Shown here one piece after another: positions 4,401-23,457 of a DNA stretch of 32,000 nucleotides (position 1 is the stretch's first letter; the number at the start of each line of letters is the position of its first letter). The DNA comes from Candidatus Moranella endobia PCIT (lineage in GTDB: Bacteria > Pseudomonadota > Gammaproteobacteria > Enterobacterales > Enterobacteriaceae), in contig NC_015735.1 of assembly GCF_000219175.1 (NCBI RefSeq), positions 240,001-272,000 on the forward strand. Reading direction: 5' to 3'. The notes under the pieces were generated by a model that was given only the letters and a program-made list of their open reading frames with translations, was not told the origin of the DNA and ran no database searches. Both the position numbers and the translations under genes were made by a program.

Positions 4401-5022
4401 GTTTAGTAAGTGGAATAGTTGCCTCACAACTAATCCATATGCTGACATTAAATATATATCTGATACCGAACACTATTCCGCTTATACCTTTTGCCATGGG
4501 ATATTGGACTAAGTGGTGTTTTCCGGTCTCGCTGGCAAATGCTTAACCAGAAATAAGCTATGAATAAGCTCACCCTTCCTCAAACCTACAAAGTGAAATA
4601 GTGAATTAACATCCCAATAATTTTCCTAGATTGGAAAAAAAACATGTCAATCTAGGATATCAGAATAAGTAAAGTTTTGCGTAAACCGCGTGCTATCGGT
4701 GGAATCGTTAGTTGCACATCTCGCTTGTTCATCATATAATAAATATTTTGTTATTATGCGATTAATACGGTTTAATCGGTCAACTAATCGCTTTGTAGCA
4801 GATACCCACCATACGCTAATTTTCAAGTAAGAACGATAAACACAACAGGATACAAACCAGTGATTTTACAAATTCATAATACAACTGGTTAAGTCTGCTC
4901 GCATATGGCAGCAAATATTGATCGTGTGCGCCCAGTTGCTGAATGATAGCCATAAAATAAAGGTATACTAATACTTTATTCGTATTTGGAATTACATTCA
5001 CTTTCAAACCGTGCGGATTAAC

Positions 5023-5928
5023 ATGCAATCTTTTGATCCCAAAACATTTCAGGGTCTTATTTTTACACTCCAAAATTATTGGTCTCTTCAAGGCTGCACC
5101 ATCGTACAGCCAATCGATATGGAGGTTGGAGCGGGGACTTCACATCCTCTAACCTGTTTGCGAGCACTTGGCCCTGAACCAATTGCTGCCTCTTATGTGC
5201 AACCTTCTCGCCGTCCTACCGATGGCCGCTATGGGGAAAATCCCAACAGATTGCAACATTATTACCAGTATCAGGTAATCATCAAACCTTCACCGGAGAA
5301 TATTCAGGAATTATATCTTGGCTCACTGCAAGAAGTTGGCCTAGATACCACCATTAACGATATACGTTTTGTAGAAGACAACTGGGATAACCCAACATTG
5401 GGAGCCTGGGGTCTTGGCTGGGAAGTATGGTTGAACGGTATGGAAATGACGCAGTTTACCTATTTTCAGCAAGTTGGCGGGCTAGACTGCCGGCCAGTAA
5501 CGGGAGAAATTACCTATGGTCTTGAGCGTCTTGCTATGTATCTGCAAGAAGTCGACAGCGTGTATGACCTGGTATGGAGCAATGGCCCACTAGGCATTAC
5601 TACCTATGGTGACTTCTTCCATCAAAATGAAGTAGAACAATCCACCTACAATTTTGAATACGCAGACGTTGGTTTTCTGTTCACATGTTTTGAACAATAC
5701 GAAAAAGAAGCGCAAACCATGCTTGCATTAGAAAAACCACTGCCTCTTGCAGCCTATGAGCGCATACTTAAAGCGGCGCACAGTTTTAATTTGCTGGAAG
5801 CACGCCAGGCGATTTCTGTCACGGAGCGCCAATGTTATATTATGCGCATCCGTACTTTAACTAAAGCCGTTGCTGAAGCCTACTACAGTTCACGAGAAGT
5901 ACTTGGTTTCCCCATGTGCAAAAAATAA
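5023..5928 (+). CDS. glyQ: Glycine--tRNA ligase alpha subunit
   Basis: [20 protein letters not shown]... is near-identical in layout to E. coli GlyQ through to ...GFPMCKK. ATG 5023 aligns with the ortholog start. The ORF-track start at 5011 is a GTG extension. Confidence 0.97.
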
Positions 5929-5953: not shown

Positions 5954-8023
5954 ATGATTCAAAAAACTTTTTTAGTAGAAATCGGCACGGAAGAACTACC
6001 GCCGAAGGCTTTGCGTGTTTTGGCTGAAGCATTCGCTACTCAAATAAACATTGAATTTAATTCAGCCAGCGTTAACCACGGCGAAGTTAGTTGGTTTGCC
6101 GCGCCCAGGCGACTAGCTGTCAAGGTTTCCGGGATAGACTGCCACCAGGCGGCTAATCGATACGTTGAGAAACGCGGTCCTGCCATTTTCCAAGCGTTCG
6201 ACGCCGCTGGTAATCCTACTAAAGCTGCCAAGAGTTGGGCAAATAGTTGCGGCATTACGCTCGATCAGGCGGAACAGCTAACAACCGAGAAAGGAGAATG
6301 GCTGGTTTACCGTGACCGGTTGATTCAGCCTTGGCCTAACTTTTTAACTATGGTGATCAGCGCGCTTAGTAAAATACCGATACCTAAAATTATGCGCTGG
6401 GGCGAAAATAATAACCAATTCATTCGCCCAGTACACACAGTGACAATGTTACTTGACGAAAGTGTGATTCACGGTAAAGTGCTTGGTGTTAACGCTGCCC
6501 GCATTCTTCATGGCAACCGTTTTATAGGAGAATGGGAAATTCATCTAGAGCATGCTGAACATTATCCGCAAGTTCTGCTGACGCGTGGCCGGGTAATAGC
6601 TGATTATTGGCAGCGTAAAGACATAATACGCCGGAATGTAGCAGTAGCAGCCAAAAGGTTAGGTGGTGTGGCTGATTTAAGTGATGACCTGCTAGAAGAG
6701 ATCACTTCGCTGGTAGAATGGCCTGTAGTGCTTACTGCTAGCTTTGAAGAAAAATTTCTGGCTGTACCAACAGAGGCACTAGTTTATACCATGACAGTTG
6801 ACCAAAAATACTTTCCAGTGTATGACTATGCTGGCAAACTAATGCCAAAGTTTATCTTAGTTGCAAATATAGAGTCGACAGATCCGCAAAAGATTATTAA
6901 TGGCAATGAAAAAGTTTTGCGCTCACGTTTTACTGACGCGGAGTTTTTTTTCAATACCGACCGAAAAAAACGGTTGGAAGAGCGTCTTTCTAGCTTAGAT
7001 ACAGTGTTATTCCAAAAACAGCTTGGCACTATGCGAGATAAGAGCGATCGAATTGAATCCTTAGCAACTTGGGTAGCAGCCCGTATTGGCGCAAATGTGC
7101 AACAGGCAGCGCGCGCTGGTCGGTTGTCAAAATGCGACCTAATGACAAAAATGGTGCTGGAATTTACTGACATACAGGGTGTGATGGGCATGTATTACGC
7201 ACGCTATGATCAAGAACCAGAAACAGTCGCACTGGCGCAAAAAGAACAATACCAACCGCGATCTTCTAAAGATGCGCTACCCACCACGCTAGTGTCATGC
7301 GCGGTAGCCATTGCCGACAAGATGGACACGCTAGTCGGTATTATCGGTATCGGCCAGCATCCTAAAGGGGATAAAGATCCATTCGCTATGCGCCGTGCCG
7401 CACTTGGTGTGTTGCGTATTATAGTAGGAAAACAGCTACCACTTGACTTAAAGATGTTAACGGAAGAAGCGGTACACCTATACCTTGACAAACTGAACAA
7501 TAATCAGGTGGTAAATGACGTTATTGATTTCATGCTCGGCCGTTGCCAAGCTTGGTATCAAGATCAGGGACATAGAATTGACACTATTCAAGCGGTGCTA
7601 GCACGTCGCCCAACCAGACCCATGGATTTTGACGCAAGGGTACGCGCGGTTAGCTATTTTAGACAATTAGAGGAAGCAGCTGCACTAGCTACAGTTAACA
7701 AGCGAGTATCTAATATTTTGGCGAAAGCTGTTGATCATCCCATCAACACAGATATGCAAGTATCGTTACTTTATGCTCAAGCAGAGATTACGCTAGCAAC
7801 CAAGTTGGGGATATTGCGTGAAAAACTACAGCCAATGTTCGAGGATGGTTTATATCAGGATGCGCTCGTAGCGATGGCGGCGCTGCATCAGCCTATAGTT
7901 GAATTTTTTGATAATGTGGTGGTTATGTCAGAGGATAAGCAGATCAGAATAAACCGCCTGACATTACTTGCACAGTTACGTGAACTATTCTTACAGGTTG
8001 CCGATATTTCGCTACTGCAATAG
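5954..8023 (+). CDS. glyS: Glycine--tRNA ligase beta subunit
   Basis: [20 protein letters not shown]... is collinear with E. coli GlyS to the C-terminal ADISLLQ. The ORF-track start at 5870 overlaps the glyQ 3' end and is an artefactual extension. Confidence 0.97.
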
Positions 8024-8233
8024 ATCAAAGTAGAAGTGCTGTAATATTTATTTATTCTACATGCCATTATTACATGACATTGTTGGTTTTATCTCTTAAT
8101 AATATTATTAGCTCACAGGAATACTATGCCAGTTACATATTCTGCGAACGGAAAAGTAAGTAACTATTGTTTTGATTTCGATAGCTTATTGTTTTGTTCA
8201 GTAGACGCCATAACCAATTCTATCTAGTTAACG

Positions 8234-8335
8234 CTACCCACTGCTAGTATTTTCTAGATGCTCAATAGCCAGCGCAGTAATGATGCCTAATGCGCAGGCC
8301 AACAGCGTGCCTAAAATCCAGGTAAAATACCACAT
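8234..8335 (-). CDS. cydX: Cytochrome bd-I oxidase small subunit CydX (33 aa)
   Basis: This ORF is absent from the supplied ORF track (too short). The minus strand encodes MWYFTWILGTLLACALGIITALAIEHLENTSSG, versus E. coli CydX MWYFAWILGTLLACSFGVITALALEH... It starts 16 nt after the cydB stop and is preceded by GGAG. Confidence 0.85.
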   Translation of the reverse strand: MWYFTWILGTLLACALGIITALAIEHLENTSSG

Positions 8336-8351
8336 TTTCTAGCTCCTTTAC

Positions 8352-9497
8352 TCAATAAAGCGAATGCGTATTTTGTTCAATATGCTCTTTGGTAATGCGA
8401 CCGAACATTTTGTAATAGCACCAAATGACATATAACAGCACAATAGGCAAGAATATGCTTACTACTACTGTCATAACTTTCAACGTTTCATAGCTAGATG
8501 TAGCGTCCCATAAGGTAAGGCTAGCCTTAGCCATCGTACTTGATGGCATTATGAATGGGAATAAAGTTATTCCTGTGGTCAATATGATGCAAGTAACGGT
8601 TAATGAGGAACAAATAAAAGCCCAGGCACTACATCCAATTCGGCTAAATAAGATAGTTAGCAGTGGCAGTAACACGCCCAGCATCGGCACAATCCATAAA
8701 GTATGATAATATTGGTAATTAGCCATCCAAGCTCCGGCTTGATGCACTACTTCTTTATTTAACGGGTTTGACTGTGCGACTCGATCGATCACAGAGGTCA
8801 CGGTAAAACCTTCTATGCTGTTAACAACCCAAATACCAGCTATCAGGAACGTCAGTAAGGTAACCAAAGCGGTAATTTGGGTAATAACGCGCATCTTCAA
8901 CTGCAAATCACCGCTAGTGCGCATTTGAAGATATGTACCACCCTGAGTCAGGAACATCATAAGACTGACAATACCCGCCAGTAGGCTAAATGGGTTAATT
9001 AACTGAAAAAAATTACCACTGTAATACAAACGCATATACTCATCTAAGTAAAATGGTACGCCCTGCAGTAGGTTACCAAAAGCTACCCCAATCACCAACG
9101 GGGGAATAAAACTACCAAGGAAGATGCCCCAATCCCAAAGATTACGCCAGCACTCATTATCAATTTTAGATCGGTAATCGAAACCAACCGGACGGAAAAG
9201 AAGCGATACTAGTAACAAAATCATGGCGATGTAAAAGCCAGAGAATGCTGCAGCATAAACCATGGGCCAAGCAGCAAACATTGCACCGCCAGCCGTGATC
9301 AGCCACACCTGGTTACTGTCCCAGTGCGGTGCAATAGTATTGATCATAATCCTCCGTTCAAGATCGTTGCCGCCAAACAGACGCATTAACATGCCAACGC
9401 CCATATCAAATCCGTCGGTGACTGCAAAGCCAATTAGCAACAAACCAATGAGTACCCACCAAACAAAACGCAATACTGCATAATTAAACATAGTCAT
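8352..9497 (-). CDS. cydB: Cytochrome bd-I ubiquinol oxidase subunit II
   Basis: This is a 381-aa polytopic membrane ORF directly downstream of cydA. Its start (MTMFNYAVLRFVWWVLIGLLLIGFAVTDGFDMGVG) and end match the CydB layout. Confidence 0.95.
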   Translation of the reverse strand: MTMFNYAVLRFVWWVLIGLLLIGFAVTDGFDMGVGMLMRLFGGNDLERRIMINTIAPHWDSNQVWLITAGGAMFAAWPMVYAAAFSGFYIAMILLLVSLLFRPVGFDYRSKIDNECWRNLWDWGIFLGSFIPPLVIGVAFGNLLQGVPFYLDEYMRLYYSGNFFQLINPFSLLAGIVSLMMFLTQGGTYLQMRTSGDLQLKMRVITQITALVTLLTFLIAGIWVVNSIEGFTVTSVIDRVAQSNPLNKEVVHQAGAWMANYQYYHTLWIVPMLGVLLPLLTILFSRIGCSAWAFICSSLTVTCIILTTGITLFPFIMPSSTMAKASLTLWDATSSYETLKVMTVVVSIFLPIVLLYVIWCYYKMFGRITKEHIEQNTHSLY

Positions 9498-9508
9498 TCG
9501 CTACTGTC

Positions 9509-11074
9509 TTACAGTGAAATAGAGGATACTGACGATTGTTCAAAATGGTAGTTACCGGTTTTTAAACTGCTAGGCCCTAAACGCGCGAATTTGAACATCA
9601 GATACATTTCAACAGCCAAAAAAAATGTGTACAGCCCGCAAATCAACACCATCGAGAACAGTATATCGCCTGTTGTTAGAGTGGAGTTGGCAATTGCAGT
9701 GGGTAGAATTTCACCGATAGCCCAAGGCTGGCGACCGTACTCGGCGATAAACCAACCAGATTCGATAGCAATCCATGGCAACGGCATTCCATAGATCATA
9801 GCACGGTGTAGCCAACGGTACTGACCAATACAATTAAACAATATAGTCCAGCAACAGACGCCTAGCATTAGCAGCATCAGTAAGCCACAACCAACCATGA
9901 TCCGAAAGGCAATATACAACGGCACTACGCGGGGGATGGAATCAATGGTTGCTTGTAGAATATGCTGTTCGCTAGCTTGGTTAATATTATCAGTATATTG
10001 TTTAAGCAGCAACCCATAGCCTAGATCCTGTTTAGCATGGTTAAATGCTTCGCGCACAGTAGTATCAGTGCTGCCTTCACGCAGCTGCTGTAGTAAATTG
10101 TAGGCATTAATCCCATTGCGGATACGCAACTCATGTTGTACCATCAGATCTTTCAGGCCTATGATCTTACGATTCGTAGATCGTGTGGCGATAATACCCA
10201 AAGCGTAAGGGATGCGCACTGCGAACTGGTTAGTCTGTTCTTTTTGGTTCGGTAAACAGAACAACGTAAATGATGCAGGTGCCGGTTCGGTGTTCCATTC
10301 CGCCTCAATAGCAGCTAACTTGGTTTTTTGCACATCGCCCATTTTATAACCGGATTCATCCCCCAACACTATGACTGACAACACTGCTGCCATACCAAAG
10401 GAGGCGGCGATGGCGAAAGATCGTTTAGCAAAAGCAAGATCGCGTCCTTTCAGCAAATAGTAAGAACTGATACCAAGGACGAACATTGCTCCGGTGCAAT
10501 ATCCAGCTGCTACAGTATGCACGAATTTAACCTGCGCTACTGGATTCAGAAACAAATCAGTGAAGTTGACCATTTCCATGCGCATGGTTTCATAGTTAAA
10601 ATCCGCCGCGATGGGATTTTGCATCCAGCTATTGGCAACTAGTATCCACAGGGCAGAAAGATTAGAACCAAGCGCCACCAACCAGGTTACGATCATATGT
10701 TGCACTTTGCTAAGTCGGTCCCAACCGAACAGGAATAACCCGATAAAAGTTGATTCAAGGAAAAAAGCCATCAAACCTTCGATAGCAAGCGGGGCGCCGA
10801 AAATATCGCCAACATAGTAGGAAAAATATGACCAATTAGTACCGAACTGAAACTCCATAGTAAGACCAGTAGCTACACCGAGTGCGAAGTTGATCGCGAA
10901 CAACTTGCCCCAAAACTTGGTCATATCTTTATATATATTTTTACCTGATAGTATATACACCATTTCCATAATAGCGAGCAAAAACGCCAGACCAAGCGTA
11001 AGCGGTACAAATAGAAAATGGTACATCGCCGTTAAAGCAAACTGTAATCGTGATAGTTCTACGACATCAAACAT
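9509..11074 (-). CDS. cydA: Cytochrome bd-I ubiquinol oxidase subunit I
   Basis: [28 protein letters not shown]... is collinear with E. coli CydA, including the Q-loop region and the GRQPWAI motif. Confidence 0.97.
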
Positions 11075-11310
11075 GATAATTCCTTGCTACTTTCAAGCAG
11101 GATCAACCTGTGCCGCTTCAAACAAGATCCAAGAGAATATAAAGAAAGGCACGATGAATAAATAAAACACAGGCTTTATTTATTATTAACTTTAAATAAT
11201 AATAAGTTGTTAGTTTCTGGAAGCAATCATAACTGTTTGAGGTAATGTATTGGATATAATTATTATATCTGATATACACAAAACTTGTTCCATAACACAT
11301 TCTAGCATGT

Positions 11311-11407
11311 TTAATAATGCCGTTTTGCAGCTAATCATTAATTAATTGGGGGGTAACCATTAATTAAACTTACACTCGTGGACTATATATAGTAATTATA
11401 TTATAAT
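11311..11407. repeat. Left copy of a perfect 97-bp inverted repeat (partner at 13348-13444)
   Basis: I reverse-complemented 11311-11407 by hand. It equals 13348-13444 at all 97 positions, and identity stops abruptly at both ends. It contains a G6 run and an AT-only sub-hairpin (TTAATTAAT ... ATTAATTAA). Confidence 0.95.
11379..11407 (+). promoter_or_regulatory. Candidate sigma70 promoter for tRNA-Leu(CAA), lying wholly inside the inner end of the inverted repeat
   Basis: The motif is TGGACT-(17 nt)-TATAAT. The -10 hexamer forms the last 6 nt of the repeat and ends 11 nt before the tRNA 5' end. This is a motif match only. Confidence 0.35.
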
Positions 11408-11418
11408 ACAATTTCAGT

Positions 11419-11503
11419 GCCGAAGTGGCGAAATTGGTAGACGCAGTTGATTCAAAATCAACCACCTGCTGGTATGCCGGTTCGAGTCCGGCCTTCGGCA
11501 CCA
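11419..11503 (+). tRNA. leuX: tRNA-Leu (anticodon CAA), CCA encoded
   Basis: GCCGAAGTGGCGAAATTGGTAGACGCAGTTGATTCAAAATCAACC...GCCGGTTCGAGTCCGGCCTTCGGCACCA matches E. coli leuX almost exactly outside the variable arm. Confidence 0.93.
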
Positions 11504-11739
11504 TATCTGCAGATCTACTTCGATCTTTTCAGAAATTACGCTCAACTATTGCTGAGTCGTTTACGTGGGTCACTTGTTGTTTAGTGCTACCTAACTAAGC
11601 GCGCCTACTATATATATTACGAATACATAAAAAAAGCTTAAACAACAAACATGAGATTTTTTGCATGTTAATGGTTTGTGGCACGGTTCATTCTACGTTT
11701 TGAATTTGTTCGCGCATTTGTTCAGTAAGTACTTTAAGT

Positions 11740-12555
11740 TCAATCGGCTGATGCAGTTACGCTGGTATTGACCGATTTTGCAGCTAGCGTGTTCGACTCG
11801 CGGTGCAATTCCTGCATTATAAAATCAAGTCTGCGACCTACCGCTTCTGGTTTGTTCAAAATATGGTAGGTTTCTTTAACATGGGTATCGATGCGATCCA
11901 GTTCCTCGGCGATGTCTATCCGTTGCGCTAAAATCACCAATTCCTGCTCTATACGGTTACTATCCAACTTAACTTGGGCTTCCTGAAGTTTGTTCAGCAG
12001 CTTTTCGCGTTGCCAGACTAGTACTGTCGGCATCTGTTGGCGCACCTTGGCTGATTCTGCACTGACACCAGCTAATCGTTTTTCTATTAGTTTCTTAAGA
12101 GCCTTGCCTTCAGTTTCACGGGCGCTGATAAGGTCTTTGCAAGTCGCGTCCAACTCCAATAGTAATTCGGCGCTGATCGTGTCTAACTCCTGCTCGGTCG
12201 TGGACATGACGCCCGGCCATCGTAAAATTTCTAGTGGTTCGATTGTACCTTCTTCTTGGCTTTGTATTTTAACCCACTTAGCGGCTGCAATCACTTGTTT
12301 TGCAAGTGTTTTATTGATGATTAAGGTACTTTGTACATTAGGATTAACGTAAAAGTACAGATTACATTCCACTTTGCCTCGAGTAAGACACAAGCGTATA
12401 CGTTCACGAATAGCTTGCTCCAGAAAAATCAATTGTTCTGGCAGACGTATGTAGGTTTCCAAATAGCGATGATTAATGGAACGTAGTTCCCAGGCGGCAT
12501 TGCCCCATATGCCTGTAATTTCACGCCGGGCAAAAGCAGTCATACTTCTAATCAT
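11740..12555 (-). CDS. yicC: YicC-family stress-induced protein/endoribonuclease, 3' end frameshifted (full-length frame would run to 11688)
   Basis: MIRSMTAFARREITGIWGNAAWELRSINHRYLETY... is collinear with E. coli YicC up to ...VTASA. One extra nucleotide near 11745 then shifts the frame. The conserved tail IELKVLTEQMREQIQNVE-stop is readable in the +1 frame down to 11688. Confidence 0.88.
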   Translation of the reverse strand: MIRSMTAFARREITGIWGNAAWELRSINHRYLETYIRLPEQLIFLEQAIRERIRLCLTRGKVECNLYFYVNPNVQSTLIINKTLAKQVIAAAKWVKIQSQEEGTIEPLEILRWPGVMSTTEQELDTISAELLLELDATCKDLISARETEGKALKKLIEKRLAGVSAESAKVRQQMPTVLVWQREKLLNKLQEAQVKLDSNRIEQELVILAQRIDIAEELDRIDTHVKETYHILNKPEAVGRRLDFIMQELHRESNTLAAKSVNTSVTASAD

Positions 12556-12679
12556 AGGCTGACCAATTTATTTAACATTCCTGTGATTATCATCCCGCTA
12601 CTCAAGACAAGATCAGATAAATCTTGTAGTCCGCGTATAATGCGGCATAGCTAACCAATCATTGACAAACAGGACCTAT

Positions 12680-13359
12680 TCTTAGGCCCTCAGCAGAAAT
12701 AACCTATCGCAAGTACGACCGGTAATAATTACTAGCAATTTTATTCAACATACCGAAAATCGGTATTAATAGCATGTGGTAAAATGCGCGTACTATGTAC
12801 TGCGTCGGTGGATAAGGGTGTGCCGCCTTTAAAAAAGGCGGCAAGGGCTGGATTACTGCTTAATATGGTATGTTACCATGTGCAACCCATACTCGCAATA
12901 CCCGAGAAGCAGCGAAAGGCAAGCAAGGTTGCCAAACTATGGAAATAAAGCATCTTATCGCACGCTCGCTACGTGCTTGCTGCTGTAGATTTACACAAAA
13001 ATGGACGTATAGACAGCAATAATTGCTCAATTACCTGGACTTGCTTAGCGCTGGCTGATACCTTAACCAGCATAAAGAAAAAATCAGTTGAATATTAATC
13101 CGATGAGAGGATGCGGCGCAGCAATTTCGTTAGGTATAGTTGCTGGGGAAGCAGTGTGCGATTTGGAATATATAGACGATTGAGTAGCAGAAACTACTAT
13201 TAATGTAGTAATGTTTGAAGATGGTCGCTTGATCGAAGTGCAAGTGACTGCCGAATGTAAGCCTGTTAGTACACAAGAATTTATTGTTTTGCTGACCGCT
13301 GTGGTATTTATAGTCGGATAAAAGCACAAAAAGCAGCGCAGGCCGCGATTATAATATAA
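12680..13359 (+). pseudogene. rph: RNase PH pseudogene (multiple frameshifts and in-frame stops)
   Basis: Fragments in shifting frames match E. coli RNase PH in order: QVRPVIITSNF, SVLIACGKMRVLCTASVDKGVPPLKK, GWITA[26 protein letters not shown], [14 protein letters not shown], and the C-terminal KAQKAAQAA. It is divergent from yicC, as in E. coli. Confidence 0.88.
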
Positions 13360-13444
13360 TTACTATATATAGTCCACGAGTGTAAGTTTAATTAATGGTT
13401 ACCCCCCAATTAATTAATGATTAGCTGCAAAACGGCATTATTAA
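13348..13444. repeat. Right copy of the perfect 97-bp inverted repeat (partner at 11311-11407)
   Basis: See the left copy. The inner end abuts the expected rph stop position, and the outer end stops 2 nt before the rsmH ATG. The outer part (GATTAGCTGCAAAAC...) may be a trace of the mraZ 3' end, but the similarity is weak. Confidence 0.95.
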
Positions 13445-13446
13445 CT

Positions 13447-14400
13447 ATGTCAGATAATTATTTACATACCACTGTTTTGCTAAATGAAGCGGTACATGGT
13501 TTAAACCTACGACCTGATGGCATCTATTTTGACGGAACCTTTGGGCGTGGCGGGCATTCGCGGTTAATTTTATCAAAGCTTAATGCACAAGGACGACTAT
13601 TTGCTATAGATTGTGATCCGGCGGCAATTGAAGCGGCACAGACCATCGATGATACACGTTTTACTATTGTCCATAAGCCTTTTTCCGCAATGCTGGATTA
13701 CATAGCAGAAAGAGATCTTGTTGGTCAAATTGACGGTATTTTGCTAGATCTAGGCGTCTCTTCGCCGCAAATCGACGATCCAGCACGTGGTTTTTCATTT
13801 ATGCGCGACGGACCACTGGATATGCGTATGGATAACACAAGCGGGCAGTCAGCCGCGCAGTGGCTAGCACAAGCGTCAGTGGACGAGATAAGCTGGGTTC
13901 TAAAGACCTTTGGCGAGGAGCGTTTCGCCAAACGCATAGCACAGGCAATCGTCGCAAGAAATCGCCAACGACCTCCTATAACACGGACTCTAGAACTAGC
14001 AGCCTTAATTACCAAGGCCATTCCGTTTCATGATAATCGTAAGCACCCTGCAACGCGCAGTTTCCAGGCGATTCGGATCTATATCAATTGCGAGCTAGAA
14101 GAGATCGAACGGGCTCTCAACTGCGCGTTGCAGGGGCTGGCCCCATACGGCAGATTAGCAGTTATAAGCTTCCATTCTATAGAGGATCGGTTGGTGAAAC
14201 AGTTTATCTATCAGCACAGCTACATACCGCAGGTGCCGGTGGGTATACCACTAACAGAAGCGCAAATATCCGCGCAATACCAGCATTGGCGCCAATTGAA
14301 AATTTTAGGGAAAATACATCCTTCGGCGCAAGAAATTACAGATAACCCACGTGCGCGTAGTTCGGTGCTAAGATTAGCAGAGAAATTGTCTAAAACATGA
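13447..14400 (+). CDS. rsmH: 16S rRNA (cytosine1402-N4)-methyltransferase
   Basis: [39 protein letters not shown]... is collinear with E. coli RsmH (MraW). ATG 13447 matches the ortholog start. The ORF-track start at 13417 lies inside the inverted repeat. Confidence 0.95.
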
Positions 14401-14666
14401 TCGATAGAAAACATTATCACTTAGTTGGAAGCATAGGTAAAGATATATTAAATAATGGCAAACTGCCCGCGCTATTACTGATTGCGGTTCTCGCCTCATC
14501 GAGCTTGGTAGTTATAACCACCTACCAAACCAGGCGGCTAACAGTTGAACGTGAGCAACTGCTTCTAGAACAGAATATATTAGATATCGAGTGGCGTAAC
14601 CTGATCCTAGAAGATAATGTTATTAGCGATCAAAGTCGCTTTGAGTTTGTCGCCACTGAGCAGTGA
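14397..14666 (+). CDS. ftsL: Cell division protein FtsL, shortened at both termini relative to E. coli (89 aa)
   Basis: [12 protein letters not shown]...[43 protein letters not shown] matches the FtsL TM and coiled-coil region. The start overlaps the rsmH stop, as in E. coli. A stop lies where E. coli continues KLQMQHVDPSQENIVVQK. Confidence 0.85.
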
Positions 14667-14935
14667 CCAAGACCATATTTAGATTAGTCGCAAGAAAAAT
14701 ATTGTGCTTCCACCTTAAGTGATCGTACTTTATCCGCTTTGATCGACCTTAGTCGCAGTCGCAAATACTGATTTATGACAAGTAGGCTGAAAAAAAATTG
14801 CTATTACTTACAGTTTAGTTATAAAAATAGCATTTGAAAGCAACCTATACTGCGATCTTTAGCGCTTGAATCTAATCATAAATTATTGGCAAAATAAGCA
14901 CAATTAGTCCGCAAACTGATAATAAATAGCGATAC

Positions 14936-16711
14936 ATGAAAGCCGCAGCATGCATGACCACTCTGAAACGCCAGGCGGCTAATAATACCAGACTTGGCGG
15001 TTGGCGTTTTACTGTTCTGTATAGTTGCATCCTACTAGCGTTGATCGGTATGACAATCAGGTTAGCCTATCTACATATCATTAATCACGATCAACTGGTA
15101 CGTGAAGGAGATATGCGCTCGCGGCGTGTGCAGCAAATTCCTACCATGCGTGGTATGATAAGCGACCGAGTCGGACGTCCTCTGGCAGTAAGCGTGCCAG
15201 TTCACGCTATCTGGGCAGATCCGCAACAGTTGACAAAATACTATAGCAGTATGAGCACAAACTTACGCTGGAAAGCGTTTTACGATGTGCTTTCTCTCTC
15301 TTATGATCAACTGTTATCGCGCATGCATACTAATTCTACAAGGCGCTTTGTCTATTTAGCGCGCCAAGTTAATCCTAATATTAGCGATTATATCCATAAA
15401 CTTAACCTGCCAGGTATTTATCTTCGACAGGAGTCACGTCGCTATTATCCCGCTGGTCATTCAACAGCGCATCTTCTTGGCGTGACCAATATTGATAGTC
15501 AGGGTATTGAAGGTATTGAAAAAAGTTTCGACAAGTGGCTAACCGGCCAACCCAACGAGCGAATGGTGCGCAAAGATCGTTTTGGCAAGATCATAGAGAA
15601 TATATCTTCGGTCGCCCGCCAGACCACGCATAATCTGTCGCTAAGTATTGACGAACAGCTGCAGGCATTGGTGTATCGTGAGCTTAATCAAGCCGTTGCA
15701 TGCAATCGTGCCGAATCTGGCACATCAGTTTTGGTGGATGTCAATACTGGCGAAGTGCTAGCAATGGCCATCAGTCCTTCTTACAACCCCAACAATTTAG
15801 TTGGCACCAACATGGATATAATGCGTAATCGTGCTATTACCGATAGTTTTGAGCCAGGTTCAACAGTAAAGCCAATGGTGGTCATGACAGCACTGCAGCG
15901 TAGATTAGTGGGGGAAAACAGCCTACTTAATACATTACCTTACATGATTAGTAGTCACCAAATTAAGGATGTAGCGCGCTATGCTGAATTGTCCATGACA
16001 GGAATTTTGCAGAAATCTAGTAACGTTGGTGTATCTAGGCTTGCGTTAGCAATGCCATCTTCGTCGCTAGCAGAAACTTACTCTCGCTTTGGATTGGGTA
16101 AAGCGACCCAGTTGGGGCTGATTGGGGAACGCAATGGCGGCTTATGTTCCCATAACCAACGTTGTTCTGACATGGACAGAGCGACTTTTTCTTACGGTTA
16201 CGGTCTAATGGCTACACCGTTACAATTAGCACGCGTATATACTATTATTGGCAGCATGGGTGTTTTACGCCCGCTGTCTATCACCAGGATAAATCCACCA
16301 GTGATAGGAGAGCGTGTGTTTCCGGCGTCGCTAGTACGTACGGTAGTACACATGATGGAAAGTGTGGCGCTACCAGGTGGATGTGGTAATAAAGCTACAA
16401 TCAATGGTTATCGTATCGCTATTAAAACTGGTACCACTAAAAAATTGGGGCTAAATGGCCATTATATCAATAAATATGTGGCCTATACCGCTGGGGTAGC
16501 GCCAGTTAGTAATCCGCGGTTTGCACTAGTGGTCGTTATAAATGATCCGCAGGGCGGCAAATACTACGGAGGAGCAGTTTCCGCGCCAGTATTTAGCACA
16601 ATTATGGGCAGCATTCTGCGGACAAAGCACATAGAACCAGATGCGCTGCGGAAACCTAGTAAAAAATTCGCCATAGTCGTAAAGACTAATACAAAAAAGA
16701 AGGTATTATAG
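14936..16711 (+). CDS. ftsI: Peptidoglycan D,D-transpeptidase FtsI (PBP3)
   Basis: The ORF is collinear with E. coli FtsI. The active-site motifs STVKP, SSN and KTGT are all present. Confidence 0.96.
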   Translation: MKAAACMTTLKRQAANNTRLGGWRFTVLYSCILLALIGMTIRLAYLHIINHDQLVREGDMRSRRVQQIPTMRGMISDRVGRPLAVSVPVHAIWADPQQLTKYYSSMSTNLRWKAFYDVLSLSYDQLLSRMHTNSTRRFVYLARQVNPNISDYIHKLNLPGIYLRQESRRYYPAGHSTAHLLGVTNIDSQGIEGIEKSFDKWLTGQPNERMVRKDRFGKIIENISSVARQTTHNLSLSIDEQLQALVYRELNQAVACNRAESGTSVLVDVNTGEVLAMAISPSYNPNNLVGTNMDIMRNRAITDSFEPGSTVKPMVVMTALQRRLVGENSLLNTLPYMISSHQIKDVARYAELSMTGILQKSSNVGVSRLALAMPSSSLAETYSRFGLGKATQLGLIGERNGGLCSHNQRCSDMDRATFSYGYGLMATPLQLARVYTIIGSMGVLRPLSITRINPPVIGERVFPASLVRTVVHMMESVALPGGCGNKATINGYRIAIKTGTTKKLGLNGHYINKYVAYTAGVAPVSNPRFALVVVINDPQGGKYYGGAVSAPVFSTIMGSILRTKHIEPDALRKPSKKFAIVVKTNTKKKVL

Positions 16712-16717
16712 GCATTT

Positions 16718-17547
16718 ATGTATGAACTTGAATAATTCGTAATCAGCTTGATGCCCACCATGGTTAAGATGGTTAAGCTAGAGCTAGCTATAATACTACT
16801 CAGGCATTGCCGCTGTCAGGGCACAAGCATAATGAATGACATTCGATAATAAGAGGAACCATTCAAAAGCAGCTATCGGCGCTGACTGGTATTTTATTAC
16901 GCATCCTTTAATCGACTCGTTTTGTACTTGTAACAAGACAAAACCACCCGCACCATCTGGATCATATCCACCCTAGTCAATACAATAATACCATCTGCAT
17001 ACCAAAATAAGTTCAGTACTTATTCTTATAAAGAAGATCACTGACCACAGTTGATCGTAGTGTATTGTTATTGGTCAATGACTAACTACTATCTATCATT
17101 CATTACCGCTTGCACGAAATAATCACTGGCTTTGTACAGGCTCTTAAATAAGCGACAGATAGTGCCTTAAGTCTTGAAGTATTTCACACATACAGTAAGT
17201 AGTAGTAGATCCTATTAAAATAGTTTAATGGATCTGATCGTGCTAAAGGTGGCTAGTTTTGCTAAAGATGCTACAGTAGTAGCAGGCCAGGCTAAGCCAT
17301 ACCACTCGCCAGTAAAATATGGCGCTTGTAGTTTATCTAACTAACCGTCCCCATTCTCCGGTAAAATAGCCAAGATCCAGTCTTAAGGCCAGGAGATAAC
17401 CGCTGTGATTCTACCCTACTCCCTACTGTCAGGTTTTCAGATGATCTGTAGTCTAACTAACCTGGTGAGAAAGAAGTGGCTAGAGAGTTAACGTAGTACC
17501 GCAATCGACAAGTGGTGCGCGAGTTACAGGAGAAAGCACCATGTTAG
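16718..17547 (+). pseudogene. Collapsed murE-murF remnant (about 0.83 kb where about 2.8 kb is expected)
   Basis: The position is syntenic, between ftsI and mraY. The 5' end shows weak nucleotide similarity to the murE start (TCGTAAT...). The 3' end reads [12 protein letters not shown]-stop, matching the MurF C-terminus (..VVRALQENGTC) and overlapping the mraY ATG. No long ORF lies between. Confidence 0.7.
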
Positions 17548-18623
17548 TATGGCTGAACGAATATTTGGTTCAATTTTATTCATGGTGTAACGTTTTTTCT
17601 AACCTTACGTTCCGTACAAGCAGCAGCTTACTGACTTCGTTGTTCCTATCACTGTGGATCGGACAACACCTGATTATCAGGCTACAAAAACTACAAATTG
17701 GGCAGGTAGTGCGAAATGAAGGACCTAAATCTCATTTTCGCAAACGCGGTACGCCAACCATGGGCGGATTGATGATTCTAACGTCGATCACTCTTGCGGT
17801 GATAATCTGGGCATATCAGGCTAACCCCTATGTATGGTGCGTGCTATTTGTTCTGGTGAGTTACGGCATAGTGGGATTTATCGACGACTATCGTAAAGTG
17901 GTGCGCAAAGACACTAAGGGACTTAGTGCACGCTGGAAGTATTTCTGGCAGTCGGTTATAGCACTGGCGGTGGCGTTCACCATATTAGCGGCTGGAACAG
18001 AAACAACGGTTACCCAGCCAATGGTGCCATATTTAAAACAGGTTTTACCCCAGCTCAGGCTGAGGTATATGCTTTTAACTTACTTCGTTATTGTCGGCAC
18101 TAGCAATGCCGTAAATTTAACCGACGGTCTGGACGGGCTTGCTATTATGCCTACTGTATTTGTTGCCGCAGGTTTAGCTATAGCAGCGTTAGCAACCGGT
18201 AACATAAATGTAGCTGGCTACCTGAACATTGCTTACGTTAGCTTAGCCGGAGAGTTGGTTGTAGTCTGTGCGGCTATTATCGGTGCCAGTCTAGGTTTTT
18301 TGTGGTTCAACGCATATCCCGCACAAGTATTTATGGGCGACGTCGGATCGCTGGCACTAGGTGGAGCACTAGGCACCATTGCTGTATTGCTACATAAGGA
18401 ATTTTTGTTGTTGATTATGGGTGGTGTGTTTGTTTTAGAAGCATTATCGGTCATTTTACAGGTAGTATCGATTAAATTACTCGGTCAGCGCATGTTACTT
18501 ATGGCTCCTATTCATCACCATTATGAATTGAAAGGATGGCCAGAGCCGCGCGTTATCGTGCGCTTATGGATTATGTCGCTGATATTAGTCCTTCTTGGAT
18601 TGGCAACGCTAAAAGTATGGTAA
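17541..18623 (+). CDS. mraY: Phospho-N-acetylmuramoyl-pentapeptide transferase
   Basis: [14 protein letters not shown]... is collinear with E. coli Mra[26 protein letters not shown] and PIHHHYE are present. GGAG lies 8 nt upstream of the ATG. Confidence 0.97.
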
Positions 18624-18625
18624 TC

Positions 18626-18949
18626 ATGCTGTACTATAATTTAAGTGAGTTAGTGTATGAACATTGCGGCGACAACTGGCTAAAAAACGCCCAAGCAAAC
18701 AACATTGTTAGAACGGAAGCGGTATTGTATGACAATAACGGTATTAAGTATCAGCTAATATCAATATCACTACGCATGAGATCTTAGCTGCTCTTAGTTG
18801 CTACAAAGCAACCACACCACATGGTGGTATTTATGGTTTGTATTAGATTGATGCGCATACTGCAATATGTCTAGAAGCATCAAAGCTCACTGATAAACTA
18901 GAGCAGTGTACATATGCACCATTTTCGCAATGTTAAAGTGCTAGTTTAG
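18626..18949 (+). pseudogene. murD: Probable murD remnant (421 bp gap where about 1.3 kb is expected)
   Basis: The position is syntenic, between mraY and ftsW. Protein similarity is very weak (M.YY at the start, F.N.K.L.-stop at the end versus FARLAKELG-stop). There are many stops in all frames. Confidence 0.5.
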
Positions 18950-19044
18950 ATTTTTATTACATTGCTTATGCAGTATCGGCTTAATAAGCGCATTATCGGG
19001 CTGGTATTAATTATCTATCTGGAGCAGTGGAGTGGGTATTAAGA

Positions 19045-20189: not shown

Positions 20190-21254
20190 ATGAAGAAAAA
20201 TAACATGCGGTTAATAGTGATGGCCGGGGGCACTGGCGGGCATGTGTTCCCAGGACTTTCGGTCGCTAATCACCTGATGGCACAGGGTTGGCAGGTTAGA
20301 TGGCTCGGTACGGCCGATCGCATCGAAGCCAGTTTGGTACCGAAGTACGGCATTGACATCGACTTCATCCGCATTGGCGGCCTACGTGGTAAGAGTATAA
20401 CAGCACAAATTATGGCACCGGCACACATCTTGCGTGCCTGGCTTCAAGCGCGGCGAATTATGTACGCCTGGAGGCCAAATGTGGTGTTAGGAATGGGTGG
20501 CTATGTTTCCGGACCAGGCGGTTTGGCTGCCTGGAGCTATGGCATCCCGGTGGTACTGCATGAACAGAATGGCATTGCCGGTTTAACTAACCGCGCCCTA
20601 GCAAAGATAGCGAGAAAAGTACTACAAGCTGTTCCCGGCGCATTCCCTCATGCTGATGTAGTGGGCAACCCGGTGCGACATACAGTAATAGCGCTACCGG
20701 AGCCAGAATTACGCTTTCGCGAACGCACTGGTCCTATTAGGGTCTTGGTGATAGGAGGTAGTCAAGGCGCTCAGTTACTGAATAAAACTATGCCAGCTGT
20801 CGCTGCCCGCTTAGCTGGTACCTTAACCATTTGGCATCAAGTTGGCAAAGGAGCGCTAACTGAAGTAAATCGGGTCTACGCTGCTACCGGACAGCAACAT
20901 AAAGTGGTGGAATTTATTGAAGACATAGCAACAGCCTATGCCTGGGCGGATATTGTGGTTTGTCGAGCTGGTGCACTGACGGTGAGCGAAATTGCTGTTG
21001 CCGGTTTACCAGCGTTATTGATCCCTTTTACTCATAAAGATCGTCAGCAGTATTGGAATGCTAGGCTGTTGGATAAGGCCGGCGCGGCGACAATTATCGA
21101 GCAGCCAGCTTTTACAGCCGAGCTAGTTAGCAACGTTCTAGCAGGCTTGGATCGTACTATGTTGCTGACCATGGCGCAGCGCGCCAGGACTGCGGCTATT
21201 ATTGACGCAACGGAGCGGGTTGCGCGCGAAGTGGTAGCTGCTGCGCACCACTAA
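20190..21254 (+). CDS. murG: UDP-GlcNAc:lipid I N-acetylglucosaminyltransferase
   Basis: [23 protein letters not shown]... is collinear with E. coli MurG. AGGTG lies 7 nt upstream of ATG 20190. Confidence 0.96.
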
Positions 21255-21278
21255 ACCTAAACATGACCATCGTAATTT

Positions 21279-21880
21279 ATGAATGAAGTGATCAAACAAC
21301 GTACTGTTAATATAACACCACTAGCTAAATTGCGAACTGTTGTTCTAAACATTAGAATTGGTGGTGCTGGTATGCGAGGGATCGCAGAATTACTAGTAAA
21401 CTAGTGATATCAAATTATTTGAGCAAATCCAGCACCGAACGCGATGACACAGCTATTGACTAATCTTGTCGTACAAATTTATTTTAACCATCGTCCGTAG
21501 AATCTCCACAATGCGAGTGTGGTGGTGTATAGCACACTATTACCTCGATAACCCAGATTTTGGCTGCTATTATTTGATCAACGTCAATGGTAAAACCGGC
21601 GAAGTAATATTGGTAGCAGTTTTCGGCCACCATCCCACCAAAGTGAAAGCAAAAAATTAAAGCAGCACGCGCCAACTGGCAGGACAGTCTGATACTTCGC
21701 TAACGTTCTGTCATGTGGGTGGTGTGAATCTGTTGATCATGCTGGAAGTTTCTTCTGTCGGCGAAGCAGCGATTCCTGGTGCCGACAGTTACTTGCGCTG
21801 TGCATAAGCATAACTATACGTTGACGTGGTAAGGGGAATACTATGCAAGTGCAGCAATAAGCATATAGGTCTTAACAGAC
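21279..21880 (+). pseudogene. murC: murC pseudogene with large internal deletion, stops and frameshifts
   Basis: Ordered fragments are TPLAKLRTVV..IGGAGMRGIAELLVN-stop, MTQLLTNL..IYFNHRP-stop, VNGKTGEVILVAVFGHHPTKV and LLIMLEVSSVGEAAIPGADSYLRCA-stop. They match E. coli MurC near residues 1-95 and from about 340 onward. The central part is missing. Confidence 0.85.
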
Positions 21881-21914
21881 AAGGATTTAGTGTGAAGCAG
21901 GGGCGCTTGCACCG

Positions 21915-22203
21915 AAAATTACTCGTAAACTAGCGGATAGTCGGTTGCTGCAGTACGCTGGAACGATGAGGTAAGTTATACATCTGTTGTTTGACGGAAG
22001 TGGCCATTTGTTCAACGTTCCAGCGTCACATAGCTTTGCACGTTCTAGAAGTTTATCCAGTTTGTCGTCTCCAGCAGACTAAGAACGATAAAACTATATC
22101 AGCTGCGTGCGCTATTAATCTGGCTTAGCCAGTGGTTGGGTGACGGTTGATATCGAGCCGACAAATTCATTAGCAACAGAAGTTGGTATAGGCATAACAA
22201 TAA
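21915..22203 (+). pseudogene. ftsQ: ftsQ remnant (3' part only); no ddlB remnant recognised between murC and ftsQ
   Basis: The fragments AAVRWNDE and LLFDGSGHLFNVP match FtsQ ..[29 protein letters not shown]...EVG matches ..SYVDLRYDSGAAVGW just before the ftsA ATG. Stops occur throughout. Confidence 0.65.
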
Positions 22204-23457
22204 ATGATCAAGATGATGGATAAAAAATTAGTAGTAGGATTGGAGATTGGCACAGTTAAAGTAGCCGTGCTAGTAGGTGAAGTACTTGCTGATGGTCTGA
22301 TGAATATTATCGGTGTCGGTAGTTGCCCATCTCGCGGCATGGACAAAGGTGGCGTTAAAGATTTGGAAGCAGTGGGAAAATGCGTGCAACAAGCTATCGA
22401 TCAAGCAGAACTGATGGCAAACTGCCATATTTCATCAGTGTATCTTGCTCTATCTGGCAAACAGATTAGCTGCCAAAATGAAATAGGTATAGTACCTATT
22501 TCCGCAGCAGAAGTAACGCAAGAAGATGTAGAAAATGTGGTGCATACTGCTAAATCCGTACGAGTACGCGACGAGCACCGTATATTGCATGTAATTCCAC
22601 AGGATTACGAGATTGATTACCAAGAAGGAATAAAAAACCCCGTTGGTTTGTCAGGAGTACGAATGCAAGCCAAAGTTCACCTGATTACCTGTCATCAGGA
22701 TATGGCCAATAACATTATTAAAGCAGTGGAAAGTTGTGGGCTAACAGTTGACCAATTAATCTTTGCCGGTTTAGCATCAAGCTATGCGGTATTGACAGAA
22801 GATGAACGTGAATTGGGTGTATGCTTCGTGGATATAGGCGGTGGCACTATGGACATAACTGTATATACAGCCGGCGCGCTCCGCCACACGCGCGTAATTC
22901 CCTACGCCGGTAACTTGGTTACTAACGACATTGCTTATGCCTTTGGCACGTTGCCAATCGACGCTGAAGCAATTAAGGTTAATTACGGCTGCGCGTTGGG
23001 ATCAGTTATCAATAATAACGAAAGCGTTGAAGTACCGAGTATCGGCGGACGACCGCCACGTAGCCTCCAGCGCCATACTCTGGCTGAGGTAATTGAGCCG
23101 CGTTATACCGAGCTGTTGAATCTAGTGAATGAGGAAATTTTGCAACTGCAGAGGCAGTTGCGTGCACAGGGAGTCAAGCACCATCTAGCAGCTGGCATTG
23201 TGCTTACCGGAGGTGCGGCGCAAATCGACGGCCTGGTAGACTGCGCACAGCAAGTATTCAATCATCAGGTGCGTATTGGCCAGCCGCTAAATATTAGCGG
23301 TATACCGAATTATGCGCAGGAGCCCTATTATTCGACTGCCATTGGGTTAATGCATTACGGTCAAGATTCATTAAATGGTAAATTGGAGATAGGAAAAAGA
23401 ACGTCGGTTAGCAAATGGTTTAAACGTTTCAGTGAATGGCTACGCAAAGAATTTTAA
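22204..23457 (+). CDS. ftsA: Cell division protein FtsA
   Basis: MIKMMDKKLVVGLEIGTVKVAVLVGEV... is collinear with E. coli FtsA, including the C-terminal amphipathic helix ...WFKRFSEWLRKEF. Confidence 0.97.
   Translation: MIKMMDKKLVVGLEIGTVKVAVLVGEVLADGLMNIIGVGSCPSRGMDKGGVKDLEAVGKCVQQAIDQAELMANCHISSVYLALSGKQISCQNEIGIVPISAAEVTQEDVENVVHTAKSVRVRDEHRILHVIPQDYEIDYQEGIKNPVGLSGVRMQAKVHLITCHQDMANNIIKAVESCGLTVDQLIFAGLASSYAVLTEDERELGVCFVDIGGGTMDITVYTAGALRHTRVIPYAGNLVTNDIAYAFGTLPIDAEAIKVNYGCALGSVINNNESVEVPSIGGRPPRSLQRHTLAEVIEPRYTELLNLVNEEILQLQRQLRAQGVKHHLAAGIVLTGGAAQIDGLVDCAQQVFNHQVRIGQPLNISGIPNYAQEPYYSTAIGLMHYGQDSLNGKLEIGKRTSVSKWFKRFSEWLRKEF

Follow-up and report, generated by a model that had tools for sequence, protein, structure and literature searches.

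Gene conversion as a probable cause of identity between the arms of a 97-nucleotide inverted repeat around the leuX-yicC-rph block of Candidatus Moranella endobia

On the chromosome of Candidatus Moranella endobia PCIT, a gammaproteobacterium that resides within Tremblaya in the citrus mealybug, a block composed of a leucine transfer RNA (tRNA) gene, leuX, the gene yicC and a remnant of rph stands between two copies of the same 97-nucleotide (nt) sequence, arranged as an inverted repeat. Here we ask what keeps these copies identical, how they came to bracket this block, and whether they form a switch. The window that we analyzed is a 32,000-nt stretch of the genome (NC_015735.1, positions 240,001 to 272,000), and positions given below count from its first letter. 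The best explanation overall, which we consider probable, is that the repeat is an old inverted duplication whose arms are kept alike by gene conversion, and that it arose when the block inverted and duplicated the spacer between leuX and rsmH.

The left arm, 11311–11407, is the exact reverse complement of the right arm, 13348–13444 (97/97 positions by blastn), and 1,940 nt separate the two; neither arm has a strand of its own. The left arm lies between the upstream region of cydA and leuX, with its inner end 11 nt from the 5′ end of the tRNA. The right arm occupies the entire gap from the end of the rph remnant to 2 nt before the rsmH ATG at 13447. A repeat search over the whole window recovers the pair in a longer, imperfect form (11301–11407 with 13348–13454; 107 nt, 96% complementary), and the runner-up inverted pair is only 30 nt long at 80%, which leaves the 97-nt pair as the sole long repeat there. 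A preliminary description of the window had already stated that the core is perfect and sharply bounded, that no other long repeat is present in the window, and that the right copy stops 2 nt ahead of the rsmH start codon, and all three statements hold.

The repeat appears again in the independent assembly of strain PCVAL and, in diverged form, in two independent assemblies from a related lineage, the symbiont of Planococcus ficus, and it is therefore no assembly artefact, a possibility that had been raised at the outset. The window and M. endobia PCVAL (CP003881.1) are 99.93% identical over 20.3 kb, with the block in equal orientation. Exact-protein look-ups with FtsL and PolA led to PCVAL alone, and those with CydA, YicC and the PCIT YicC to no contig. 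Repeats of at least 20 base pairs (bp) have been tabulated genome-wide for PCVAL, and this pair is listed there as MIR14 (43 bp) and MIR15 (60 bp), at 52338–52435 and 54375–54471, with its context given as “-/-” and with no third copy (Lopez-Madrigal et al. 2015, PMC4479817). The idea that many copies might be scattered through the genome thus finds no place in the published table, which has two only; the repeat is a local two-copy feature, catalogued earlier for PCVAL and never interpreted. The PCVAL left arm has a run of seven G residues where its right arm has six C, so that its arms are 1 base apart (window 11347, where PCIT has six G), and it is because of this extra base that the table splits the repeat into MIR14 and MIR15.

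More can be learned from the second lineage. Searches with YicC and RsmH yielded one further Moranella-like lineage, at 93–94% protein identity, in Logan contigs of SRR16213284 and SRR16213285; a survey of public RNA sequencing (RNA-seq) data lists the former under P. ficus (PMC13340311). A separate contig scan with RsmH matched conserved motifs, and the 80 loci kept belong to Shewanella and other distant taxa, none of them to Sodalis or Moranella. After reverse-complementing, the P. ficus contig aligns collinearly to the window at ~91% nucleotide identity (~9% diverged), and the two P. ficus assemblies agree at all except 1 of 12,548 positions. Gene order in P. ficus, namely cydA pointing leftwards, arm, leuX, yicC pointing leftwards, rph remnant, arm and rsmH, is that of PCIT in order and orientation, and the orthologs of the left and right arms lie at 11118–11209 and 9293–9378 of contig L002. 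Since both arms stand at identical junctions in P. ficus, the repeat predates the split between the symbionts of P. citri and P. ficus, which rules out an artefact as well as a recent scar.

The account dismissed here, a recent one-off scar or assembly artefact whose arms no longer interact, draws on the perfect identity of the arms, as expected of a duplication made very recently. It must contend, however, with identical junctions in a lineage ~9% diverged, with two independent assemblies of the P. citri symbiont that have the repeat, and with species differences that are common to both arms (below), and we find it scarcely credible. The preliminary description had suggested comparing the locus in related symbionts, on the view that a repeat absent from relatives would be such a scar. 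In P. ficus the repeat is present, in equal orientation, with arms ~6% apart.

What, then, has happened to the arms since the two lineages separated? We aligned the PCIT arm, as a single sequence since its copies do not differ, to the two P. ficus arms, which gave 84 ungapped columns. Most columns (70/84) are constant. At nine of the 84, both P. ficus arms are alike and differ from the PCIT arms; 2/84 are private to the P. ficus left arm, another 2/84 to the P. ficus right arm, and 1/84 is different in all three. Two indels show the same sharing within a lineage: a single base of the G run, and a 7-nt ATTATAT that both PCIT arms have and neither P. ficus arm has. Independent evolution of the four arms at the local neutral rate predicts 0.29 two-against-two sites, whereas nine are observed (P ~3e-11), and the chance of both PCIT arms staying identical without conversion is ~5e-7. 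Arm divergence within a genome is 0% in PCIT and ~6% in P. ficus, compared with 14.3% between species. Within one genome the arms resemble each other more closely than orthologous arms of different genomes do, despite a duplication that predates speciation.

Constraint on the sequence does not account for this pattern. Between the two species the arm has diverged by 14.3%, the spacer upstream of cydA by 14.4% and the rph pseudogene by 14.4%, whereas yicC has diverged by 5.0%, rsmH by 5.5% and the tRNA by 2.4%. Divergence at the neutral rate (14.3% versus 14.4%) excludes purifying selection on the sequence as the cause of arm identity. Neutral drift between species, combined with identity within a genome, therefore points to gene conversion and not to sequence constraint. 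By this comparison of aligned arms, the two have evidently not been independent since the P. citri and P. ficus symbionts split, and changes in one arm have been copied to the other. The distribution of differences further suggests that homogenisation is very recent in the P. citri lineage and lies some time back in P. ficus, as the latter has 4–5 private differences.

Selection could, in principle, act on pairing between the arms rather than on their sequence. The arms would then form the stem of a read-through RNA, like the processing stems of ribosomal RNA (rRNA), or a DNA cruciform, and the changes would be compensatory. Nine double changes do keep complementarity, and read-through transcripts probably exist, since a 43-kb P. 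ficus contig assembled from RNA covers the entire locus. But compensatory evolution should be much slower than the full neutral rate at which the arm has in fact changed; the 7-nt and 1-nt indels common to both arms fit copying rather than independent compensation; the P. ficus arms bear 5 unpaired differences and an extra indel, and the locus is still there; and no Rfam family other than tRNA was matched. We regard selection on pairing as very improbable.

For conversion between the arms, a mechanism can be proposed. M. endobia is reported to keep recABCGJ, ruvABC and priAB (PMC3620526; PMC4479817), and the copying would be intrachromosomal gene conversion carried out by Moranella’s own homologous recombination through RecA, RecG and RuvABC. 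It would be a by-product of two nearby homologous tracts and would call for no dedicated device. Now and then a crossover may go along with conversion, and the block would then be inverted.

Such crossovers could amount to an active flip-flop, in which RecA keeps both orientations of the 1.9-kb block in the population, with or without a regulatory role, and the orientation decides from which strand of the block read-through runs to cydAB or the dcw cluster. Perfect 97-nt arms suffice for RecA recombination, and gene conversion, demonstrated here by the comparison of arms, is often tied to crossover. An inverted block would give leuX an identical promoter arm and would thus be nearly neutral. 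Moreover, Tremblaya PCIT, the partner symbiont, is reported to have both orientations of a 7,032-bp segment with a 71-bp inverted repeat at either end (quoted in PMC3620526). In Moranella, however, the block has one and the same orientation, judged at assembly level, in PCIT, PCVAL and the two P. ficus assemblies, with neither a coexistence of both orientations nor a difference between strains. The block also has no conserved promoters to swap and no recombinase domain, and the arm sequence drifts neutrally. An active flip-flop seems unlikely to us. The earlier expectation that the copies still recombine consequently stands in part: gene conversion, ongoing or active until very recently, is indicated by the nine shared substitutions and two indels, but flip-flop inversion is not, as one orientation is seen.

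A regulatory role would involve promoters, and each arm does carry a promoter-like TGGACT-17-TATAAT (10/12 matches to consensus). In the left arm (11379–11407, plus strand) it is the probable leuX promoter, with 11 nt between the end of its −10 box and the mature tRNA; its counterpart in the right arm (13348–13376, minus strand) reads inward, in antisense to the rph remnant, and is probably a passenger of the duplication. In the P. ficus symbiont the −10 box is kept, as are the 11 nt between it and the tRNA, but the −35 box and its spacing are not: the right arm has a deletion of TGGAC, TGGACT as −35 box would leave a 13-nt spacer, and TTGTGG-16-TATAAT is an alternative. From these motifs and distances, the leuX promoter likely lies in the left arm. 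Promoter-like sites are not in excess in the region (6, versus 7.4 ± 2.9 in shuffles), and neither arm has an outward-facing one. A consensus scan of the divergent region between yicC and rph, 12560–12680, found no promoter-like site, and a deletion in P. ficus removes the single TATAAT that this region contains (12636).

The preliminary description had placed an inward TGGACT-17-TATAAT in both arms and the leuX promoter inside the repeat, and had supposed that inversion would swap promoters of the yicC/rph region between cydAB and the dcw cluster. The inward sites are present, although the TGGACT and the 17-nt spacing are not kept in P. ficus; a leuX promoter inside the repeat is reasonable, given the conserved TATAAT and its distance to the tRNA; and the supposed swap fails on the empty scan and the deleted TATAAT. 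One bolder scheme would make the locus a recombinase-free, RecA-driven phase-variation cassette of a 538-kb intracellular genome, still flipping in present-day symbiont populations, with a leuX promoter in each arm and with the orientation of the block setting read-through into rsmH-dcw and cydAB; in a variant, the arms may pair in read-through RNA and form a 97-bp stem that is cleaved to free the tRNA-containing loop. We consider such a cassette very unlikely. The locus does not look like a site-specific invertase system either, as the neighbors are cydA and rsmH and the arm promoter points inward in both arms.

It is less obvious how the repeat originated, and here its ends are informative. 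Similarity between the arms persists in register for ~10 nt past the perfect core. On the right, this extension (13445–13454, plus strand) consists of CT and rsmH codons 1–3 (ATG TCA GA) and is native rsmH sequence, beginning CT ATG TCA G. On the left, it (11301–11310, no strand) is a decayed copy of the rsmH start, which reads CATGCTAGAA on the minus strand, with CTATGCTAG as its P. ficus counterpart, where CT ATG CTA G can be recognized. The outer ends in P. ficus, CTAGCATAG on the left and CTGACATAG on the right, are equal at 8/11 positions in register. In Sodalis endolongispinus, homology to rsmH starts precisely at the window ATG, 13447 (ATGTCAGAAAATTAT versus ATGTCAGATAATTAT here). Because Sodalis homology begins at the ATG and a decayed copy of the ATG stands on the left, the outer end of the unit would be native to rsmH.

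The inner end tells a complementary story. In both species the left arm ends inward in TATAAT, 11 nt before the mature tRNA. Both P. ficus arms run on as TATAATACT, and the ancestral unit therefore extended towards the tRNA by this much or more. The right arm meets the rph remnant at its inner end, directly after the final codons (C-terminal ...AQKAAQAA up to the arm boundary), and this junction is novel. The ancestral unit would then have been ~110 nt long, with the leuX −10 box and leader at its inner end and the rsmH start codon plus ~5 nt at its outer end. As the unit is contiguous both with the 5′ side of leuX and with the start of rsmH, the former order would have been leuX <- unit -> rsmH. 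This arrangement of ends suggests that the repeat unit is the duplicated former divergent spacer of leuX and rsmH. The leuX-yicC-rph block would have inverted once, the spacer being duplicated at both ends through staggered breaks or replication template switching, and the inversion with duplication would have left leuX its promoter in the left arm and rsmH its immediate 5′ flank in the right arm. In S. endolongispinus, mraZ lies directly upstream of rsmH, and with homology only from the ATG onward, Moranella has therefore lost mraZ and the native rsmH promoter. Also in S. endolongispinus, leuX is not adjacent to yicC, and the block is therefore no ancestral unit there.

An older, longer duplication had been proposed before, on the strength of a match farther out in the left flank. 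The in-register extension of ~10 nt into the rsmH start codon bears out a longer unit. The flank match itself, TATATCAGATA, is no evidence of it: local alignment gives P=0.27 against dinucleotide shuffles, the match sits in a 28-nt PCIT stretch missing from P. ficus, and we attribute it to chance.

The same anatomy bears on a further possibility, that the arms are relics of a mobile element: terminal inverted repeats of a decayed composite transposon, of an insertion sequence (IS) pair or of a miniature inverted-repeat transposable element, or the scar of an island at leuX. Inverted repeats around a block beside a tRNA gene would fit this idea, as would the IS-rich stage that Sodalis-allied symbionts go through. 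But the genome holds only two copies, according to the published PCVAL table; the block contains ordinary chromosomal genes, with yicC and rph divergent as in Sodalis and Escherichia coli; the outer end of the arm continues into rsmH coding sequence; and the repeat is inverted and 5′ of the tRNA, rather than a direct repeat of the tRNA 3′ end. As the preliminary description had it, no transposase or recombinase is encoded, and there is no integrase either: a Pfam scan of the open reading frames (ORFs) of at least 40 amino acids in the block gave YicC domains only. The arm had no match among 72,556 plasmids, and the conserved-core arm pattern had none in Joint Genome Institute metagenome contigs. 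For a tRNA-associated island, too, an integrase is lacking, and the repeat does not overlap with the tRNA. An origin from a mobile element appears highly improbable.

Several points weigh against an old, converted inverted duplication derived from the leuX/rsmH spacer. First, the comparison has a single outgroup lineage, P. ficus, whose contigs were assembled from RNA-seq rather than DNA; with one outgroup the direction and number of conversion events are not polarisable, and the two lineages may have evolved at unequal rates. Second, the recombination genes are known from the literature, none lying within the window, and the leuX promoter is placed by consensus matching. Third, the difference between the PCVAL arms could be a 454 homopolymer error; alternatively, the seventh G may be a mutation awaiting conversion. 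Finally, no genome with the pre-inversion arrangement was found, and the origin is read from the anatomy of the ends. Two candidate sources of the arm in Sodalis were considered and rejected as chance matches. The 3′ end of mraZ in S. endolongispinus is at the right distance to the ATG, yet P=0.075; the alaE-mraZ spacer gives P=0.013 with the PCIT arm and 0.70 and 0.95 with the P. ficus arms.

With these points in mind, the repeat provides direct between-species evidence of gene conversion on the Moranella chromosome after the P. citri / P. ficus split, acting on a neutral tract of less than 100 nt and, in the P. citri lineage, very recently. The recombination that keeps duplicated loci of Tremblaya identical has been proposed to come from M. 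endobia, and the same authors hold that this recombination is now attenuated or inactive. Two points are new in our analysis, the evidence for conversion from a comparison between species and the interpretation of the unit as a leuX/rsmH spacer that was duplicated; the retained recombination genes, a larger concertedly evolving duplication and the similar repeat-flanked block of the partner symbiont were already known. At ~2.3 kb, a size suited to the polymerase chain reaction, the locus is a clean, small marker of recombination in a highly reduced genome, through which conversion tracts and any inversion could be traced across mealybug populations. It also illustrates how an essential promoter can outlive a rearrangement through duplication at the breakpoints. 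The repeat leaves our knowledge of symbiont genome evolution unchanged, and there is no sign that it is a genetic switch.

The genes of the block and its surroundings are as the preliminary description had them: a tRNA-Leu(CAA), a frameshifted yicC and a dead rph, with cydABX on one side and rsmH-ftsL-ftsI on the other reading away. The tRNA-Leu(CAA) gene leuX (11419–11503, plus strand) was identified by ARAGORN and by Rfam (59.4 bits), corresponds to trnL2/MPC_041 in PCVAL, and is identical at 83/85 positions between P. ficus and PCIT. The gene yicC (11740–12555, minus strand) encodes a 271-amino acid member of the YicC/YloC endoribonuclease family with the YicC N- and C-terminal domains. Relative to PCVAL and P. 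ficus, its C terminus is truncated by a 1-nt insertion, an extra G at 11746; YicC is intact, at 287–288 amino acids, in PCVAL and the P. ficus relative, and the shortening in strain PCIT is on record (Lopez-Madrigal et al. 2013, PMC3620526). The best protein match to YicC of the window is the PCIT YicC.

The rph pseudogene, a remnant of RNase PH (12692–13347, plus strand), is oriented divergently to yicC, an arrangement shared with E. coli and Sodalis, and is homologous to the yicC-rph region of S. endolongispinus. In tblastn, E. coli RNase PH, a query that serves as a guide only, matches it in three frames with in-frame stops, and the remnant has no plus-strand ORF of at least 80 amino acids. 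To the left, cydA (9509–11074, minus strand) is the first gene of cydABX and reads away from the left arm, which its upstream region (11075–11310) adjoins; cydA, cydB and cydX all point left. To the right, rsmH (13447–14400, plus strand; TIGR00006, 384 bits) is the first gene of the dcw cluster and, like ftsL and ftsI, points right. An in-frame ATG at 13417, within the right arm, is where the listed ORF starts and would lengthen rsmH by 10 codons (13417–13446). We rejected it as the start codon, as it is absent in P. ficus and lies upstream of 13447, where Sodalis homology begins.

Other features of the region deserve mention in their own right. The dcw cluster (window 14666–14936, 16711–17541, 18623–19027 and 21254–22204) is left with rsmH, ftsL, ftsI, mraY, ftsW, murG, ftsA, ftsZ and lpxC as ORFs, and is without mraZ, murE, murF, murD, murC, ddlB and ftsQ. 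These losses fit the reported mosaic peptidoglycan pathway of host and symbiont in the mealybug system. Cumulative GC skew reaches a minimum at ~13 kb, at the block (within window 8000–14000), and follows the switch in gene strand from cydAB on the minus strand to dcw on the plus strand; we do not accept this minimum as a replication origin, as the skew is not negative farther left. In the comparison with PCVAL, 15 differences were counted over 20.3 kb (4397–24666), and six of them, at 11347, 11746, 11935, 12883, 12884 and 13277, fall inside the 2.1 kb of repeat plus block, probably reflecting relaxed constraint on the rph remnant and the decaying yicC. Two compensating indels in A runs, at 5919 and 5942, distinguish the window from PCVAL in the glyQ/glyS overlap, in agreement with the reported difference in glyQ length between the strains (PMC3620526). 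The P. ficus contigs L002 (43 kb) and L003 (17 kb) are unbroken over spacers, pseudogenes and both arms, although they come from RNA-seq runs; their length implies pervasive read-through transcription or carry-over of DNA in the libraries.

A second inverted repeat straddles the start of the window. Its arms, 87 nt long with 78/87 positions complementary, are 4,906 nt apart and bracket polA-dusA-tRNA-Leu(TAA)-tRNA-Cys. The 40-bp core has been listed as MIR13 (PMC4479817). The right arm lies at window 4489–4575 (L088 14392–14478), and the left arm ~420–500 nt before the window start (L088 9399–9485), with 55 nt between it and the eno ATG downstream. In PCIT the two arms do not differ in their central 40 bp. 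The right arm is recognisable in P. ficus, and three outer sites unite the right arms of PCIT and P. ficus against the PCIT left arm. In layout this repeat resembles the 97-nt pair: a short inverted repeat, with a block ending in a tRNA gene that faces an arm.

How does the 97-nt repeat compare with known systems? The site-specific invertible promoter switches are Hin, Gin, Cin and the fimS element of FimB/FimE. These, too, have inverted repeats around a segment with promoter-like sequence. In contrast, the Moranella arms are 97 nt rather than 9–30 nt long and neutral, no recombinase gene is present, and no orientation variants were seen; the Moranella repeat is not a member of this class. A closer parallel for its origin is the staggered-break model of Drosophila inversions, in which the sequence at one breakpoint ends up on both sides of the inverted block, as inverted copies. 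Each copy then has one native and one novel junction, as would be the case in Moranella. The model is a eukaryotic one, however, whereas the Moranella case is drawn from the anatomy of the ends, and template switching is an equally possible route.

For the subsequent behavior of the arms, other analogies are more apt. Plastid inverted repeats are 10–30 kb long and flip frequently. Together with the repeats of Portiera of whiteflies (PMC3673631), they share with the Moranella pair conversion, and sometimes inversion, without a dedicated recombinase, and paralogous copies that are closer within a genome than between species. Portiera differs in that its numerous repeats are tied to loss of polymerase proofreading, whereas Moranella has a single 97-nt pair.

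The nearest likenesses come from the same mealybug. In Tremblaya princeps PCIT, the 7,032-bp segment (TIR11, PMC4479817) likewise combines short perfect repeats (71 versus 97 nt) with a block of a few kb, in a tiny endosymbiont genome and with no adjacent recombinase. According to McCutcheon and von Dohlen (2011), as quoted in PMC3620526, this segment occurs in both orientations in PCIT and in one in PCVAL. Tremblaya has no recombination genes of its own, unlike Moranella, and the Moranella block is seen in one orientation. Within M. endobia itself, a 4,023-bp inverted duplication of the rRNA region (MIR16) is identical in both strains and has been called concertedly evolving (PMC3620526). It is in the same genome, it is inverted, and it has been attributed to the same retained recABCGJ/ruvABC machinery; it is also 40 times longer, with copies 230 kb apart that carry functional rRNA and tRNA genes. 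Concerted evolution of MIR16 was inferred from identity within one species, whereas for the short, non-coding 97-nt repeat it is drawn from a comparison between species.

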